DNA of 6,755 nucleotides from a virus (lineage: Duplodnaviria; Heunggongvirae; Uroviricota; Caudoviricetes). Both the position numbers and the translations under genes were made by a program. The DNA is taken from IMG/VR virus record IMGVR_UViG_2706794690_000012, one strand, 5' to 3'. Positions 1,710 to 6,755 of this stretch are shown here, piece by piece; the stretch's first letter is position 1, and each line of letters opens with the position of its first letter. Below the pieces are notes generated by a model, which made no database searches, was not told where the DNA came from, and was given only the letters and a program-made list of their open reading frames with translations.

Positions 1710-2072
1710 GGGGCTGATTCTGGATTCGACGGGATTTGCGAAACCCAAGGTGCATGCCGAGGGGCGGTTGGCCTCGTAAAAAGCCGCAAAAAATAGTCGC
1801 AAACGACGAAAACTACGCTTTAGCAGCTTAATAACCTGCTTAGAGCCCTCTCTCCCTAGCCTCCGCTCTTAGGACGGGGATCAAGAGAGGTCAAACCCAA
1901 AAGAGATCGCGTGGAAGCCCTGCCTGGGGTTGAAGCGTTAAAACTTAATCAGGCTAGTTTGTTAGTGGCGTGTCCGTCCGCAGCTGGCAAGCGAATGTAA
2001 AGACTGACTAAGCATGTAGTACCGAGGATGTAGGAATTTCGGACGCGGGTTCAACTCCCGCCAGCTCCACCA
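1710..2072 (+). ncRNA. ssrA: tmRNA (SsrA, 10Sa RNA), complete 363-nt mature sequence ending in CCA
   Basis: Begins GGGGCTGATTCTGGATTCGACGGG (tRNA-like acceptor 5' half) and ends GGACGCGGGTTCAACTCCCGCCAGCTCCACCA (T-arm plus acceptor 3' half plus CCA). The internal tag frame is present. The sequence matches E. coli ssrA as I recall it. Confidence 0.95.
1799..1831 (+). other. tmRNA tag-peptide reading frame: GCA AAC GAC GAA AAC TAC GCT TTA GCA GCT TAA, encoding ANDENYALAA plus stop
   Basis: The exact canonical E. coli degradation tag codons, read directly inside ssrA. Confidence 0.9.
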
Positions 2073-2190
2073 CTTTTGACAGGACTGCAACCGGACAGAG
2101 ACTATAAAAACAGTCACTTACGGACACTGACCAGACAGTAAGCGGACCAGAAAAAGACAAAAATATACACGCAAAATGCACGTGCATTTC

Positions 2191-2226
2191 AAAAAAGCCT
2201 CTGATTATGAAGTCAGAGGCTTTTCT
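2191..2226. terminator. Bidirectional rho-independent terminator between ssrA and the convergent phage tail operon
   Basis: Perfect 8-bp stem GCCTCTGA (2197-2204) / TCAGAGGC (2213-2220) with an 8-nt loop, flanked by A6 (2191-2196) and TTTTCT (2221-2226). It lies about 45 nt past the stop of the last minus-strand ORF (2271) and about 120 nt past the ssrA 3' end. Confidence 0.6.
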
Positions 2227-2270
2227 AGTTGTAAATAAGGGTAACAATTTAACACGATGCAGCTTACCAA

Positions 2271-2492
2271 TTACGTAACATCAAACGCTCTAATTGTTCC
2301 CAAATCCTCCAGACCACTCAGCTCCTCTTTCATTTCACGCTGACGGCGATAAATCTCATCGTTGCGATCGACCTGCGCCTGCACCATTGCTGCCGCCAGT
2401 TCTTCCAGTTCCGGCATCGACAGTTTCACCTGCTGATTATCGGCATCACCCCACGCCATATGCGTTTGTGCTGTGACAGATTTTGCCAGCAT
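2271..2492 (-). CDS. Hypothetical small protein (73 aa from the ATG; frame open upstream to 2525), predicted helical; possibly the C-terminal part of a frameshifted tail-fibre chaperone
   Basis: Codon usage is E. coli-like (ctg gaa gaa ctg gcg gca gca atg gtg cag...). It is the last ORF before the terminator in the tail-fibre operon. No clear RBS precedes the ATG at 2490-2492. It overlaps the preceding ORF in another frame. Confidence 0.4.
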   Translation of the reverse strand: MLAKSVTAQTHMAWGDADNQQVKLSMPELEELAAAMVQAQVDRNDEIYRRQREMKEELSGLEDLGTIRAFDVT

Positions 2493-2700
2493 GACTACCG
2501 GGGACAGGCGGCCCAGTGAGTCGGGCTATCTCACCCCATTTGCCACTTTGCAGTTCCTGCCAGATTCGCTGACCCGTCGGTGCGACATCATCAGCGGTGG
2601 CTGTGTAGGGGACTGCCTGGTCCCTGTCGTCAAAAAAAACGTCACAGTCTACTGCGCCACTTTCGGTATAACGGGGATTAATGATTTTTTTAATTTCCAC
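2446..2700 (-). CDS. Hypothetical protein (84 aa, GTG start) directly downstream of the Stf-like gene; possible N-terminal part of a tail-fibre assembly/chaperone protein
   Basis: An in-frame GTG at 2698-2700 is preceded by GAGGAA with a 6-nt spacer, directly after the Stf stop (TGA 2711-2713). The ORF-track ATG at 2758-2760 would overlap Stf by 50 nt. The product ends in a proline-rich stretch (LTGPPVPG) reminiscent of Tfa inter-domain linkers. Confidence 0.4.
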   Translation of the reverse strand: MEIKKIINPRYTESGAVDCDVFFDDRDQAVPYTATADDVAPTGQRIWQELQSGKWGEIARLTGPPVPGSHAGKICHSTNAYGVG

Positions 2701-2710
2701 GGTGCATTCC

Positions 2711-3979
2711 TCACGATGTGCGAATAAAAAGCCCGGGCATTGCGCCAGAGACATGAGCATCCGGCACCCCGGACAGGGCGCTATATGACCCCGGTAATGA
2801 ATGCTCTGAACATCCCGTAATGAAAAATTGTGGGGATGCTATATACGTTCCGGTGGGAGTACTGGGCACTGAAATCCCCACCGGTCCCAGTCGTGAGCCT
2901 CTGTATGACTGCCCCCTGACAAGTCTGATGACTTTATCACCGTCAGCTTCTCCCTGGTACGCAGCAATAATCAGCCCGCCAATGTCAGGGTCTCCCCATC
3001 TGTTGCAGACAGAGCTCGCCACGATTCTGTAAATAATATCTTCTGTGGTTATATTTATTTTCACCCAGCCAGTCAGTCTGGATATGGGCCAGTAGCAGTA
3101 GCGGGTGTGATAAATGGGGCCGTTAATGCCGTAAAAAGTAAGGGATTTGGCTCTGTACCTCGGTTCTGTTGTCTCAGGGCGTGCATCAGTCCACCGGATG
3201 CTGAGCACCCCTTCAAACCGTGTGTCGGGTATGATGATGTCGTAGGGGCCAGCAACGGAATATTCACCTGGCAGCGCATTCCTTACCCAGGCCAGGAAAT
3301 CACTCTTAGTGTCAAAACGGATAACATCTTCAGGCAGAAAAGCACACCCAAAGCCGAATGCGCCGGGTATCGCCAGACGGCCTTTTGTCCGGTCGTAAAT
3401 GTCGCTCTGTGCTTCCATCGTGGCCGCACTTTTCAGCCCCAGATTATCCCGGGACTTCTGTTGTGCCTTTTCGCCTGCTGCTGCGATTTCAGACAGATGG
3501 TTAGCCGTTTTCAGAGTGCCGGTCAGCGCAGCATCAATGTCATTTTTGGCCTGCTCTGCTGCGCGGGCATAACCTGCGGCTGCCGCCACATCCTGCGCCG
3601 TCTGCTGTGCGTTTCCGGCTGCGGCCCCGGCGCTCTGCTGCGCCTGCGCCACCATTTCCTCAAAGCGTTTGACGACATCCGGTTTCAGGTCGCCCTCATC
3701 AGGAGCAATCAGAAAGTCATTCAGCGTGCCGGGCTTTGAGTCGTCGTATACAGCAATGTCGCCAACACAGTACTCGTCGCGCCAGTCCCGTTTCAGATAC
3801 ACGCAATATTTTCCGACCTGTGCCTCAAACGAATATTCACCGTTATTTCCGGTCACTACATCAGCCCTGGTACGCATCACCACTTCTGAGGTGTTTACAC
3901 GGGATTTCAGAATAATCTGGCATCCGGACATGGGGATGCCTGCGCCATCAGTCAGCGCACCTGATATCACTACAGACAT
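2711..3979 (-). CDS. Side tail fibre protein, 422 aa, with a lambda Stf-like N-terminal domain, an Ala/Gln-rich shaft and an unrecognised C-terminal region
   Basis: The N-terminus MSVVISGALTDGAGIPMSGCQIILKSRVNTSEVV...VYDDSKPGTLNDFL parallels lambda Stf (MAVKISGVLKDGTGKPVQNCTIQLKARRNSTTVV...VYEDSQPGTLNDFL; recalled from memory). This is followed by an AAAGNAQQTAQDVAAAAGYARAAEQAK-type shaft. The last roughly 230 aa have no family I recognise. Confidence 0.85.
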   Translation of the reverse strand: MSVVISGALTDGAGIPMSGCQIILKSRVNTSEVVMRTRADVVTGNNGEYSFEAQVGKYCVYLKRDWRDEYCVGDIAVYDDSKPGTLNDFLIAPDEGDLKPDVVKRFEEMVAQAQQSAGAAAGNAQQTAQDVAAAAGYARAAEQAKNDIDAALTGTLKTANHLSEIAAAGEKAQQKSRDNLGLKSAATMEAQSDIYDRTKGRLAIPGAFGFGCAFLPEDVIRFDTKSDFLAWVRNALPGEYSVAGPYDIIIPDTRFEGVLSIRWTDARPETTEPRYRAKSLTFYGINGPIYHTRYCYWPISRLTGWVKINITTEDIIYRIVASSVCNRWGDPDIGGLIIAAYQGEADGDKVIRLVRGQSYRGSRLGPVGISVPSTPTGTYIASPQFFITGCSEHSLPGSYSALSGVPDAHVSGAMPGLFIRTS

Positions 3980-4002
3980 AGTTTTTCTCGCGATAAATTA
4001 AA

Positions 4003-4548
4003 TCAGGAAGAACCTTCCGGAGAGACGGACCATTCAATGGCGTTATATGAGGATTTATCAGTGATGGTGCTGAAATCCATCGCCTGCAGCGATTTCGCGT
4101 AAATACGGTACGCTTTCAGTTTTTCCCGGTCTTCGTCGCTGATTAGCCCCAGCAGCAGGTCTTCTTCCCATTCCCCTGTCCGGGCACTGACCTGAGCCAG
4201 AAGGGCATCACGCTCATCTTCCGCTTTGAGTCTGTAGTCAAAGACAAATTCATCATTGCGGTAAAACCAGTAACCCGGCGCGGTAATGCGGCGGTTGGCG
4301 GTAATATCAGGAACTTCAATAACACTGGCGTTACGGGGTTCAATGCCTGTCACATCCTTACCGACCCACACCACGCGCCCGTCTCCGGTGTAAACCATTT
4401 TTATGGTGTCACTGGCAAAGTTCTTCTGTTCTTCATACCAGTTTTTGCCGTCTTCCGAAAAAAGCCAGGTGACATCATACTGTTTTGTCAGCTGATATTA
4501 TTCCGCGGTTTTCGGATTACCTGCCGTAATATTTTTTAAATGCAACAT
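4003..4548 (-). pseudogene. Tail-fibre assembly protein (Mu U / TfaE-like) interrupted by an in-frame ochre stop at codon 17; the ORF track shows only the distal 131-aa part (4003..4398)
   Basis: The ATG at 4546-4548 sits 2 nt after the upstream tail-fibre stop (TAA 4551-4553). It reads MLHLKNITAGNPKTAE, then TAA at 4498-4500, then continues in the same frame YQLTKQYDVTWLFSEDGKNWYEEQKNF...ITANRR...IEWSVSPE. The N-terminal signature matches Mu U / TfaE-type proteins (MHLKNI.AGN.KT..QY.LTK...DGKNWYEE) as I recall them. Confidence 0.6.
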
Positions 4549-4550
4549 TG

Positions 4551-5603
4551 TTAAATACTCGCTACGTTATACCAGGTGCCATTAATCAGTTTTTGCAGCG
4601 GTCGGTAATACACGCCGTTGACGTTATCCGCTGAGTTACGGCCGGTATCCGATATCGATATCCCTGACAGCCCGTGTCCCGAAGGTGAGCGAAATGTCCA
4701 CGAAACGGTGTTACTGCCGGGGGGGTAATACATTTCATAACCATACCGCACATCCTGCACGCCACCATTTCGCTGCTGGTAACGGGCATCAAAGTTTCCG
4801 TAGTCTGACGGTGTTACCCGTCCTGTAACGTTTACAGCTTTATTACTCTGGATACTGCCACTCTGAAAACGCAACACATGCACGCTATTGGCATAAACAT
4901 CCAGCAGGCCATCACCATTCTGTTTGAATCCGGTGTCATTATCACCAAGAACAATTGAATTCCCCCCCAGGGCGTTCTGAACGCCGATACCCAGCGCACC
5001 ATTGACCTGCGAACCACCGCCAACAGACACTTTATGCGACATGGATATTTCACCCGTCCGCAGATTAATGGTGAACGGGCGCAGGGGACCAATATCGCCA
5101 TTTTCCCCCTGACCTTCACTGGTGGGAATAAGGTGCAGGCACTCTTCCGAACGACGAAAAATCAGGCCAAAAGCTTCGTTGAAAATCCTCAGCGCATTAA
5201 CACCACGGATTTTCAGCTCTCCGGTCATGGTGTCGCCATCACGCTGAACGGCATTTTTTGCCTTATCCACCGTGGGTTTTAATCCGAGGTTTTCAACAGC
5301 CTCATCCCTGTCTTCCACATCCGAAAGGTTATTTTTTATCAGCAATGCCTCTTCGTTAATTGCACCGCCCACCAGCAATAATATAGCCTTATATAGCTGG
5401 TCGTGTTCTTCTTTATTCAGTTCTATCCCGGCCTTCTCAATGACACCACAGATTTCCTCCTGAATGGCATTCCACATGGCACTGTTCAGCCAGGTAGCAA
5501 GACGTCCTGTGCGAAGATTTCCGTCAGTAAATCCGTTCTTACCCGGACCAAACTTATCTTTTACCGCAGTCAGCGTATCAATCCTGTGCATCTTCATCCT
5601 CAT
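4551..5603 (-). CDS. Tail fibre protein (Mu S-like), 350 aa
   Basis: The N-terminal motif FTDGNLRTGRLATWLNSAMWNAIQEEICGVIEKAGIELN resembles the conserved N-terminal region of Mu S-type tail fibres. The C-terminal part is Gly/Asn/Ser-rich. It is followed 2 nt later by the Tfa start. Possible starts at 5603, 5597 or 5591 all overlap the upstream gene. Confidence 0.8.
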   Translation of the reverse strand: MRMKMHRIDTLTAVKDKFGPGKNGFTDGNLRTGRLATWLNSAMWNAIQEEICGVIEKAGIELNKEEHDQLYKAILLLVGGAINEEALLIKNNLSDVEDRDEAVENLGLKPTVDKAKNAVQRDGDTMTGELKIRGVNALRIFNEAFGLIFRRSEECLHLIPTSEGQGENGDIGPLRPFTINLRTGEISMSHKVSVGGGSQVNGALGIGVQNALGGNSIVLGDNDTGFKQNGDGLLDVYANSVHVLRFQSGSIQSNKAVNVTGRVTPSDYGNFDARYQQRNGGVQDVRYGYEMYYPPGSNTVSWTFRSPSGHGLSGISISDTGRNSADNVNGVYYRPLQKLINGTWYNVASI

Positions 5604-6168
5604 CTGGATAGGAAAATAAAACGACGGTGTGTGACGGACATAATTTATTAATCACGCACTCCGCAACCGTATCCCCCCACGTCCGGATCGGTGTGTTGCA
5701 GGCGTCCGTGCATGTCTGCCACTGAGCACCGGCATCCATCGGCAACGTCACACGCCAGAAATAACGCCAGCGATCTCCCCATTCCGGATCGGGGCTTGCA
5801 TCCAAGTGCTGGAACTGTTCGATCGTTACGCCGGTATATCCCAGCGCCTCAAGCTGATCCAGGAAGAACTGCTCATTTATGCCACCAGCCACATTGGCTT
5901 TTGCTTCAAGACGTTGCTGACGCTGGCGTAATGTCTGGGTTCCGACAGGGGAACAGGAATCAGGTAAACCATACAATTCTTCATAACGTTCAATCAGCTC
6001 TGTGGACTGACCGGGATCGATTTCAATCACCAGTTCATCAGCCCGCTGGTGAACACGCACAAGCGATGGTGCCAGACCGTCAAGTACACCGTCGGTATCT
6101 GACCATGCAGGCCCCGGCGGCATCAGTCCGTACAGCAGCTTTGTATAATCATCCTGTAACGAATCCAT
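5578..6168 (-). CDS. Phage tail protein, Mu gp48 / P2 gpI / YmfQ-like (DUF2313-type), 196 aa
   Basis: The N-terminus MDSLQDDYTKLLYGLMPPGPAWS and the C-terminal TWGDTVAECVINKLCPSHTVVLFSY follow the pattern of YmfQ/gp48-like tail proteins (from memory). It sits between the baseplate J-like and tail-fibre genes as in Mu and P2. Its ATG (6166-6168) overlaps the upstream stop in a TAATG arrangement. Confidence 0.75.
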   Translation of the reverse strand: MDSLQDDYTKLLYGLMPPGPAWSDTDGVLDGLAPSLVRVHQRADELVIEIDPGQSTELIERYEELYGLPDSCSPVGTQTLRQRQQRLEAKANVAGGINEQFFLDQLEALGYTGVTIEQFQHLDASPDPEWGDRWRYFWRVTLPMDAGAQWQTCTDACNTPIRTWGDTVAECVINKLCPSHTVVLFSYPDEDEDAQD

Positions 6169-6566
6169 TATTTACTCCTTGCCGGGTCATAAGCCTGCCA
6201 GGTGATCTCGCCGAGCACCGGAAGCTCGGTCTCCCCCAGGTCAATATCCGATGAAGGGACGATTAACCGGTGGGCCACTTCACCAGCAGACAAACTGATG
6301 GCCTCACTGATTCTGGACAGATACATACGCCCCTCTGGCACACCATCCCGTAACATCAGTGCATTCAGCTCTGCTTTTATTGCAGTCCTGATCTGCGGTG
6401 TGTCTTTCGATAATGCAATCGTCATCGGGATGACTTTTTCTGTGGCACCGAATACATACAATCCGCTTCCGGCAACAGGTGCCAGAGGAAGGATGTGGTC
6501 CCTGACTGCGTTAATCACGCTTTCATCCGGGGCCGGGCGTTCCGGATCGTTTGTCGCCACCATCAC
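6168..6566 (-). CDS. Baseplate J-like protein (Mu gp47 / P2 gpJ family), C-terminal portion; the frame stays open upstream to an in-frame TAA at 6681-6683 and again from there to the window edge
   Basis: The ORF-track product MVATNDPERPAPDESVINAVRDHILPLAPVAGSGLYVFGATEKVIPMTIAL... has the layout of baseplate J C-terminal halves. The in-frame upstream translation VGSITGGADPDYVIWAKEVQGINRAWTFRHWKGTGTVGV also looks coding. The gene is therefore probably truncated or disrupted rather than a true 132-aa protein. Confidence 0.6.
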   Translation of the reverse strand: MMVATNDPERPAPDESVINAVRDHILPLAPVAGSGLYVFGATEKVIPMTIALSKDTPQIRTAIKAELNALMLRDGVPEGRMYLSRISEAISLSAGEVAHRLIVPSSDIDLGETELPVLGEITWQAYDPARSK

Positions 6567-6755
6567 GCCAACCGTTCCAGTGCCTTTCCAGTGTCTGAAA
6601 GTCCATGCACGGTTAATACCCTGAACTTCTTTCGCCCAGATAACATAATCAGGGTCTGCGCCCCCGGTGATGCTGCCAACTTACTGATTTAGTGTATGAT
6701 GGTGTTTTTGAGGTGCTCCAGTGGCTTCTGTTTCTATCAGCTGTCCCTCCTGTTC

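Follow-up and report, generated by a model that had tools for sequence, protein, structure and literature searches.

Does the 6,755-nt stretch of DNA from IMG/VR virus record IMGVR_UViG_2706794690_000012 (hereafter the window) preserve a disused host-range switch, or part of a tail that carried two different fibres? Two tail fibre cassettes follow one another on the same strand of this DNA, a Mu S/U-like pair and a lambda Stf-like fibre with small open reading frames (ORFs) downstream, and an initial sequence-only reading had proposed both a mosaic dual-fibre tail and the fossil of a host-range switch. Our analysis makes it very probable that the late operon of phiP27-type phages ends in a conserved, co-directional four-gene module for two fibres, and that the window contains a relic of this module at ssrA rather than a frozen switch; by homology, the second fibre would be mounted as a collar. 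Coordinates refer to the whole window, in which the phage genes are all on the minus strand. Labels from L001 to L067 denote related loci compared with the window, and L54 to L57 are the names of phiP27 genes.

Two fibre genes and their downstream partners

The first cassette in the order of transcription consists of a fibre gene and a tail fibre assembly gene (tfa), both of which proved to be Mu-like as proposed. Fibre 1 matched Mu tail fibre protein S (PDB 5YVQ/9KI1) with an E value of 4.6e-25, was 30% identical to Mu S over 251 amino acids (aa) by blastp, and over aa 5–69 was 58% identical to StfP of the e14 prophage. Its real start is probably the methionine of MHRIDT at 5591, which gives a protein of 346 aa. 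The tfa product belongs to the Caudo_TAP family, and an intact Tfa relative is 41–47% identical to Mu U and U'. Homologues of S and U are found together beside gp47/gp48-type baseplate genes, the arrangement of a Mu S/U pair. The sequence-only reading had identified the assembly gene correctly but not its extent: alignment with relatives and translation demonstrate that the 131-aa ORF (4003–4398) is an internal restart within a gene of 181 codons, which is interrupted by a CAA to TAA change at codon 17 (4498–4500; Q17*). The nonsense codon is common to L006, L007, and L028. In Mu, six trimeric S fibres dock by their N-termini on a loop of gp48, and all six loops are occupied (PMC11915804). By homology, the N-terminal ~110 aa of fibre 1 would dock on the YmfQ wedge of the baseplate, as Mu S does on gp48.

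The second cassette begins exactly 23 bp after tfa, as had been noted, and encodes a fibre of a different anchor type. The gene for fibre 2 has an ATG start of its own and encodes a complete PF08400 (phage_tail_N) anchor, which was matched by residues 1–131 with an E value of 2e-63. Its N-terminus is approximately 45% identical to that of lambda Stf over 110 aa, bearing out its description as lambda Stf-like. Comparison with solved structures yielded Stf of Ur-lambda (PDB 9E7M; E = 4.6e-17) and gp40 of Vibrio phage XM1 (PDB 7KJK; E = 1.1e-6 over residues 1–198), the latter being recovered by Foldseek as well with a probability of 1.0. An AlphaFold2 (AF2) model had a mean predicted local distance difference test (pLDDT) score of 65, with scores of 75–90 for the N- and C-terminal domains, and contained a beta-sandwich at residues 1–90, long helices, and a globular C-terminal domain. 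The N-terminal domain of the model superposed on 9E7M with a template modelling (TM) score of 0.86 at 2.0 Å, and the middle of the protein is predicted to form a helical stalk. A fold search with the C-terminal domain gave no confident match, the best being phage K gp144 (probability 0.57) and the R2 pyocin fibre (probability 0.23). In fibre 2, the conserved part gives way to the variable part at the peptide SRDNLGLKSAA, which falls in invariant alignment columns and has its NLGL at 3434–3445. The exact fibre 2 protein is present in 723 blocks of the assembly collection.

The small ORFs reported downstream of fibre 2 are real, but they are the pieces of one DUF4376 gene, in which a 134-bp deletion at approximately 2524 shifts the frame and leaves two ORFs (2446–2760 and 2271–2492). 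L028, which is 99.9% identical to the window, retains the 134 bp, and by comparison with L006, L007, and L028 the deletion is found in the window only. DUF4376 proteins have been identified by experiment as tail fibre chaperones in Alteromonas phage V22 (gp27) and in the Campylobacter CJIE1 prophage, and A5 gp9 is listed in the same class (PMC7289586, PMC10579305, PMC7882524). The characteristics of this class are found here too, namely the C-terminal domain, a gene located directly 3' of a fibre gene, and a variable N-terminal part matching the fibre tip, from which we infer that the DUF4376 gene of the window was the chaperone gene of fibre 2 and is now broken. Because DUF4376 proteins encoded just 3' of fibre genes are chaperones, cassette 2 would represent a second complete fibre-plus-chaperone pair rather than a fibre with stray ORFs. 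A sequence search of PDB gave no match for the DUF4376 protein. A likeness of DUF4376 to the C-terminus of Mu U has been remarked upon in print, but blastp against Mu U and U' revealed no similarity. We also observed that phrog_11571 (proteins of 223 aa) matches the N-terminal part of the Mu U-type protein and the C-terminal part of the DUF4376 protein; these hybrid-like matches suggest domain shuffling between the two chaperone classes.

Conservation of the module in phiP27 and its relatives

All components of a phiP27-type module were found in the window: genes for YmfQ, an S-type fibre, a Caudo_TAP protein, a PF08400 fibre, and a DUF4376 protein, co-directional and located at the end of the late operon proximal to the attachment site (att). 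The complete genome of the Shiga toxin 2e (Stx2e) phage phiP27 (NC_003356) contains L54 (fibre), L55 (assembly), L56 (fibre), and L57 in the same order and orientation, likewise att-proximal. The same four genes, again with order and orientation preserved, are found in the prophage of E. coli C311, in FDAARGOS_944, in Rac-SA53, and in a phage labelled pPE4. An IMG/VR search with the YmfQ protein returned 41 loci (YmfQ 93–100% identical), which were probed by tblastn; approximately 20 of these contain YmfQ, fibre 1, Tfa, fibre 2, and DUF4376, all co-directional. At a coverage of at least 80%, the junction from tfa to fibre 2 is present in 88 of 5,426 complete E. coli genomes. Relatives in which the four genes are undamaged (phiP27, C311, and the approximately 20 IMG/VR loci) therefore carry exactly the co-directional layout of the window, which supports the mosaic dual-fibre tail and argues against the fossil switch. 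The module is a recurrent and already annotated feature of phiP27-type prophages, and the only novelty lies in how we propose fibre 2 to be mounted. Phage phiP27 is reportedly inducible and transducing. 'Traversvirus P27' (PMC12502783) is a different, short-tailed phage and was set aside.

A scar is present at the position of cassette 2 in L038 (13718–13901), as well as in L032, L033, L037, L041, and L042. There the tfa stop is followed by the usual spacer and then by a fusion in which 13 codons from the start of fibre 2 run into the final ~35 codons of the DUF4376 gene. The structure of the scar indicates that cassette 2 was ancestral in the L038 lineage and was later lost.

The 23-bp spacer between tfa and fibre 2 is kept in relatives that lie at different chromosomal sites. 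A promoter scan between the two cassettes predicted no promoter-like site, and a strong terminator-like hairpin is found after cassette 2. Together with the shortness of the spacer, these data suggest that the two pairs form one transcription unit. One weak terminator-like hairpin was listed across the tfa stop (4006–4018, 5 pairs).

Variation of the cassettes was analyzed in 12 loci, and the numbers are indicative only. The N-terminal anchors of both fibres average approximately 89% identity, and the last 150 aa of each fibre average 30–34%. The two fibre C-termini vary independently of each other (rho 0.11), whereas variation in the N-terminal part of the DUF4376 protein follows that of the fibre 2 C-terminus (rho 0.47); this part of the DUF4376 protein is 48% conserved and its C-terminal part 74%. 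These values are indicative of both pairs behaving as host-range cassettes in the relatives.

The fibre 2 anchor in unrelated tails

Rac-SA53 (L065/L067; KU052037) and pPE4 (L004; PP818812) have unrelated baseplate, sheath, tube, and neck proteins, and only the fibre module is shared. Residues 1–202 of fibre 2 from Rac-SA53 are 96% identical to the C311 copy, and none of the 16 other P27-type structural proteins tested was detectable in Rac-SA53, which has sheath and hub families of its own. Its fibre 1 is shared only from approximately aa 115 and has a different N-terminus. The 96% identity across lineages implies that the anchor is functional, or has at least been retained, in two contractile tails that are unrelated to each other, which would fit either a low-specificity ring collar or docking on the module itself. 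From these comparisons the module appears to move as a unit, and the second anchor appears to be portable. We tentatively raise the possibility that fibre 2 and its DUF4376 chaperone constitute a self-contained 'clip-on' receptor-binding unit, mountable on contractile tails of unrelated lineages through the lambda/XM1-type collar domain, with the anchor acting as a low-specificity ring round the neck or tail or docking on fibre 1. If this is true, then the phiP27-type prophages (Stx, Shigella, and E. coli) would represent myoviruses whose neck or side fibres have so far gone undescribed. Record PP818812.1 was deposited as an Actinobacillus pleuropneumoniae phage; its module has 82–89% DNA identity to E. 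coli/Shigella prophages, and the host label looks doubtful.

Proposed mounting of the two fibres and alternative explanations

We propose that a temperate phiP27-type phage, with a contractile Mu-like tail, would carry two separate fibre-plus-chaperone pairs at the end of its late operon. Pair 1 would consist of a Mu S-type fibre, attached by its N-terminus to the gp48/YmfQ baseplate wedge, and a Mu U-type assembly protein. Pair 2 would consist of a fibre with a lambda Stf/XM1 gp40 'collar' domain (the N-terminal 90–130 residues) and a DUF4376-type chaperone. We infer co-expression of both fibres and their pairing with the chaperones; in intact relatives the two fibres would be synthesized at the same time and occupy different sites on the virion, providing two receptor specificities at once rather than alternately, and their two variable C-terminal ends would be exchanged independently by recombination. 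Known structures bear on the place of attachment. Residues 1–94 of Ur-lambda Stf, in 12 copies, form a collar round the gpV/gpM junction that carries four trimeric side fibres, and this collar touches its partners only via the beta4–beta5 loops (PMC12617516). The collar spike of XM1 is gp40, six trimers of which are attached to the connector and terminator rings in the neck of a phage with a contractile tail and a simple baseplate (PMC10457771). Based on the match of its N-terminal domain to these two collar domains, fibre 2 probably forms a collar elsewhere than at the six baseplate sockets; since the tube of a contractile tail is enclosed in a sheath, a position at the neck, as in XM1, would be the most plausible.

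The same dual-fibre module might also function with fibre 2 positioned elsewhere than at the neck, either docked on fibre 1 or some other module component, so that a branched fibre results, or forming a partner-tolerant ring elsewhere on the tail. Such an arrangement would fit with what Rac-SA53 and pPE4 share, which is limited to fibre 1 from approximately aa 115, tfa, the 96% identical residues 1–202 of fibre 2, and DUF4376. It would also fit with the restriction of lambda collar contacts to beta4–beta5 loops and with residues 100–180 of fibre 1, which are approximately 80% conserved across all carriers of the module. Mu S keeps this stretch too, however, and Mu has no fibre 2, so that the conservation is not specific to dual-fibre phages; in addition, both solved homologues of the fibre 2 domain use it to encircle the tail axis and bind no other fibre. 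We consider attachment away from the neck to be rather unlikely. Several points nevertheless weigh against our own proposal of a dual-fibre module with a collar-mounted fibre 2. The attachment site is derived solely from the homology of one domain, and a sequence search detected no match between the P27-like neck proteins (terminator and head-closure) and the XM1 chains. An anchor that is 96% identical in Rac-SA53, where none of the 16 other structural proteins tested was detectable, fits poorly with a specific neck partner. Some relatives lack cassette 2 (the scar lineage and L009), and the second fibre is therefore an optional extra in the group and evolutionarily dispensable. The covariation statistics use non-independent pairs, and a few of the automatically extracted ORFs were truncated. 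We know of no experiment showing both fibres in phiP27-type virions.

The fossil switch predicts traces of an invertase and its sites. As first noted, no invertase gene is apparent in the window (nothing better than E = 1 by tblastn with PinE and Gin), and the same queries detected none in 12 related loci of 11–30 kb. No Pin homologue was found within 10 kb in the 41 IMG/VR relatives. Among the 63 annotated features of phiP27 there is no invertase; a tyrosine integrase and an excisionase are present. A degenerate 27-nt gix pattern had 0 matches at up to 3 mismatches, and the core AAACCNNGGTTT had one 1-mismatch match in the window, which is within chance. Full-length scans made use of real sites, gixL/gixR from Mu and pixL/pixR from e14, and the best matches (15–16 of 26) were the same as in shuffled sequence, so that the search for gix-like 26-bp crossover sites suggested at the outset revealed no site above chance. 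No inverted partner was found for the best 26-mer (5274–5299), and a general search for inverted repeats gave none that exceeded 27 nt at 74%. The peptide VENLGL encoded by this 26-mer is the conserved junction peptide of the fibres, within which the Mu and e14 sites also lie, and the 26-mer itself reads as a half-site-like remnant, a coding-level echo of shared ancestry and not a crossover site. NLGLK is found at the conserved/variable boundary of both fibres (3434–3445 and 5279–5290), and in Mu and e14 this peptide overlaps the inversion crossover site; in the window the two DNA stretches are only loosely similar (~13 of 21, read by eye) and in direct orientation.

For the window to be a fossil switch, its cassettes would once have been opposite-oriented alternatives in a Gin/Pin/Cin-type segment that then lost its invertase and became fixed in direct orientation. 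The same baseplate family does contain a real switch: in e14 of K-12, jayE-ymfQ-stfP-tfaP is followed by tfaE and stfE' in inverted orientation and then by pinE. Fibre 1 of the window keeps the ENLGL peptide and a 10-nt AAAACCTCGG core at the spot where Mu has its gix site. Pin, or what remains of it, lies downstream in 7 of the 11 e14-like genome loci obtained by a two-sequence alignment search (YmfQ 56–70% identical). A more distant e14-like clade thus supplies the relatives with an inverted fibre set and a Pin invertase that the sequence-only reading had suggested looking for, but fibre 2 or DUF4376 was found in none of the 11 loci. After tfa the two clades therefore differ in content, with a true Pin switch only in the e14-like clade and with fibre 2 and DUF4376 in the phiP27-like clade. 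In Mu and e14, moreover, what alternates is a C-terminal fragment of the fibre, which uses a constant N-terminus encoded outside the invertible segment. Fibre 2 is a complete gene whose anchor belongs to another family, and with its own start and its own anchor domain it cannot be the alternative C-terminal half of fibre 1; the chaperones also come from different families, Caudo_TAP and DUF4376. Every defining feature of a Din-type switch, as represented by Mu G/Gin, P1 C/Cin, and e14 P/Pin, is missing (an invertase, paired ~26-bp inverted sites, and opposite orientation with a shared fibre N-terminus), and we judge a frozen switch to be very improbable. An accidental junction, with cassette 2 left over from an adjoining lambdoid prophage and not part of the same phage, would account for the overwhelming occurrence of PF08400 fibres in lambdoid siphoviruses (311 phage records, nearly all of lambda, Stx, or Gifsy types), and stacking of elements at ssrA, including the second prophages of L060 and L064, could have provided the occasion. 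Cassette 2, however, lies within the att boundaries of the complete phiP27 genome, its 23-bp spacer is conserved at different chromosomal sites, and a phage-derived att core directly follows it. An accident of this kind has next to no credibility, and a neighboring lambdoid prophage was excluded as the source of cassette 2 by phiP27 and the conserved junction. A conserved module that supplies two fibres to one phage accounts best for the locus.

Organization and damage of the window

The left third of the window is chromosomal and contains ratA, yfjF-like ORFs, smpB (1013–1495), and ssrA. The final ~37 nt of ssrA (about 2036–2072) come from the prophage end and represent the att core. In L028, a near-identical copy of the prophage, identity with the window ends at 2035, inside the ssrA 3' end, and the C311 prophage is integrated at ssrA exactly as the window prophage is. 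The prophage end spans from about 2036 to 6665 and is read on the minus strand, with an IS1 end beyond it. In the order of transcription it contains a baseplate J fragment, YmfQ, fibre 1, tfa, the 23-bp spacer, fibre 2, the DUF4376 gene, a hairpin, and the att core (Table 1). The hairpin just after cassette 2 is likely to be the end of the late operon.

Table 1. Features of the prophage end and its integration target, by position in the window (ORF, open reading frame; aa, amino acids; a point denotes no strand)
Feature	Position	Strand	Basis
ssrA (transfer-messenger RNA, tmRNA) gene, integration target	1710..2072	+	ARAGORN; tag ANDENYALAA
Terminator-like hairpin (AAAAGCCTCTGA-cttcataa-TCAGAGGCTTTTTT)	2191..2224	-	Read directly from sequence; missing from terminator scan listing
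Putative DUF4376-type chaperone gene for fibre 2, pseudogene	2271..2760	-	PF14301 on distal ORF; intact 188–207-aa relatives
Fibre 2, 422 aa, intact ORF	2711..3979	-	PF08400; PDB 9E7M, 7KJK; AF2 model
Fibre 2 variable C-terminal part, putatively receptor-binding, aa ~215–422	2714–3337	-	C-terminal variability among relatives
Fibre 2 N-terminal predicted collar/anchor domain, aa 1–92	3704–3979	-	PF08400; PDB matches; AF2 superposition
Spacer from tfa to fibre 2, exactly 23 bp, weak GAG ribosome-binding motif	3980..4002	-	Sequence
tfa, Mu U-type tail fibre assembly gene for fibre 1, pseudogene	4003..4548	-	PF02413 Caudo_TAP, E 7e-21; 181-aa intact relatives
Fibre 1 (Mu S type), intact ORF, variable C-terminal part	4551..5603	-	Mu S match; phrog_6859
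Best gix-like 26-mer (CTGTTGAAAACCTCGGATTAAAACCC), codes VENLGL	5274..5299	-	16/26 to Mu gixL, equal to mean best match in shuffles
YmfQ/Mu gp48-type baseplate wedge gene	5578..6168	-	PF10076, E 2e-25; 56% identity to e14 YmfQ
Baseplate J/Mu gp47-type 3' fragment, last 165 codons, cut by IS1	6168..6665	-	PF04865; translation
IS1 terminal 90 bp, inserted in baseplate J; window ends inside	6666..6755	.	100% identity to annotated IS1 in P1 and other records

An intact relative of the baseplate J protein matched Mu gp47 (PDB 9KI1) with an E value of 2e-36. The IS1 insertion in this gene is common to several loci of the window lineage, which comprises L006, L007, L028, and L059–L064 and is found on IS1-rich chromosomes: the two halves of baseplate J lie approximately 760 bp apart in L028, and IS1 transposase genes flank the same position in L059–L064. 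The proteins closest to those of this lineage are named from Shigella sonnei, flexneri, boydii, and dysenteriae, and the best match among complete E. coli genomes is at most 97.7%; the host of the window prophage is most likely Shigella. Three lesions are present in the window copy, namely IS1 in baseplate J, Q17* in tfa, and the frameshifting 134-bp deletion in the DUF4376 gene, and since tfa and the DUF4376 gene are both broken, the four genes of the module are not all intact here. As the damaged end of a phiP27-type prophage, the window copy is a dead relic. The ORFs of fibres 1 and 2 have remained intact, although the baseplate gene and both chaperone genes are broken.

The surroundings of the att site vary among the loci. 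ssrA is a hotspot where elements stack. Beyond the ssrA 3' end, L028 (14230–14300) contains other DNA and not smpB-ssrA, and this divergence inside the gene suggests that elements have stacked at the ssrA att site. A second prophage with an integrase lies beyond the module in L060 and L064. Genes for IpaH/SspH-type NEL E3-ligase effectors are located at the att-proximal prophage end in L009 (12386–14689, minus strand), where the IpaH-like gene occupies the place of cassette 2, and in L001 (10193–11834); in FDAARGOS_944, a frameshifted ipaHe adjoins the DUF4376 gene. The att-proximal end of these prophages is a cargo slot. In L038 (10001–12033), the YmfQ ORF is lengthened to 319 aa, and YmfQ is separated from fibre 1 by an additional ORF of 349 aa that matches no Pfam family.

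Comparison with known systems

The window itself matters little, being the decaying prophage end of a common and already annotated type. Its closest known counterpart is phiP27, in which L54–L57 are the same genes in the same order and orientation, att-proximal and preceded by the same Mu-like baseplate genes, with DNA 80–93% identical over most of the module. In phiP27 the four genes are intact and the integration site is a different one, whereas the window has three inactivating lesions. The C-terminus of fibre 2 also differs in phiP27 (490 aa, ~31% identity), as does the tip of fibre 1. The phiP27-type group includes an Stx2e-converting phage.

For fibre 2, the relevant comparisons are with lambda and XM1. 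Ur-lambda Stf/Tfa (9E7M) shares with it the collar, approximately 45% identical in sequence and superposable at 2.0 Å, a coiled stalk, and a downstream chaperone gene. Lambda differs in having a non-contractile tail with the collar at the junction of tube and distal tail, a Caudo_TAP chaperone in place of DUF4376, and an unrelated C-terminal receptor-binding part; the relatives of the window encode a tail sheath and a Mu-type baseplate, and the gene downstream of fibre 2 is not Caudo_TAP. XM1 gp40 (7KJK) has a similar immunoglobulin (Ig)-like N-terminal domain followed by a long helix, and XM1 itself combines a contractile tail and a simple Mu-type baseplate with a second receptor-binding protein mounted off the baseplate. 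It differs in that gp40 ends in a tailspike domain and in that its neck proteins have no sequence match to those of P27-like phages, where a neck attachment is putative. A collar-domain anchor that travels between unrelated contractile tails leads us to predict extra neck or side fibres on phiP27-type phages, which would be relevant to host-range prediction and to fibre and tailocin engineering. As to the chaperones, V22 gp27, A5 gp9, and that of CJIE1 are likewise encoded by small genes directly 3' of a fibre gene and combine a variable N-terminal part with a conserved DUF4376 domain at the C-terminus; their partner fibres have other N-terminal anchors, and the gene in the window is broken, with its chaperone role assigned by homology.

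The Mu G segment (S/U, S'/U', Gin) and the e14 P segment (StfP/TfaP, TfaE/StfE', PinE) have a homologous fibre 1, tfa, baseplate J, and gp48/YmfQ, and like the module of the window they are solutions for two receptor specificities. The switches employ an invertase, paired 26-bp sites, opposite orientation, and a shared N-terminus, none of which is found in the window, where both fibres are complete genes. Phages with a Mu-like baseplate would thus have arrived at two solutions to the two-receptor problem: the e14-like Pin switch presents one fibre at a time, and in the phiP27-like clade a second, differently anchored fibre has been added as a complete gene, so that both would be present at once.

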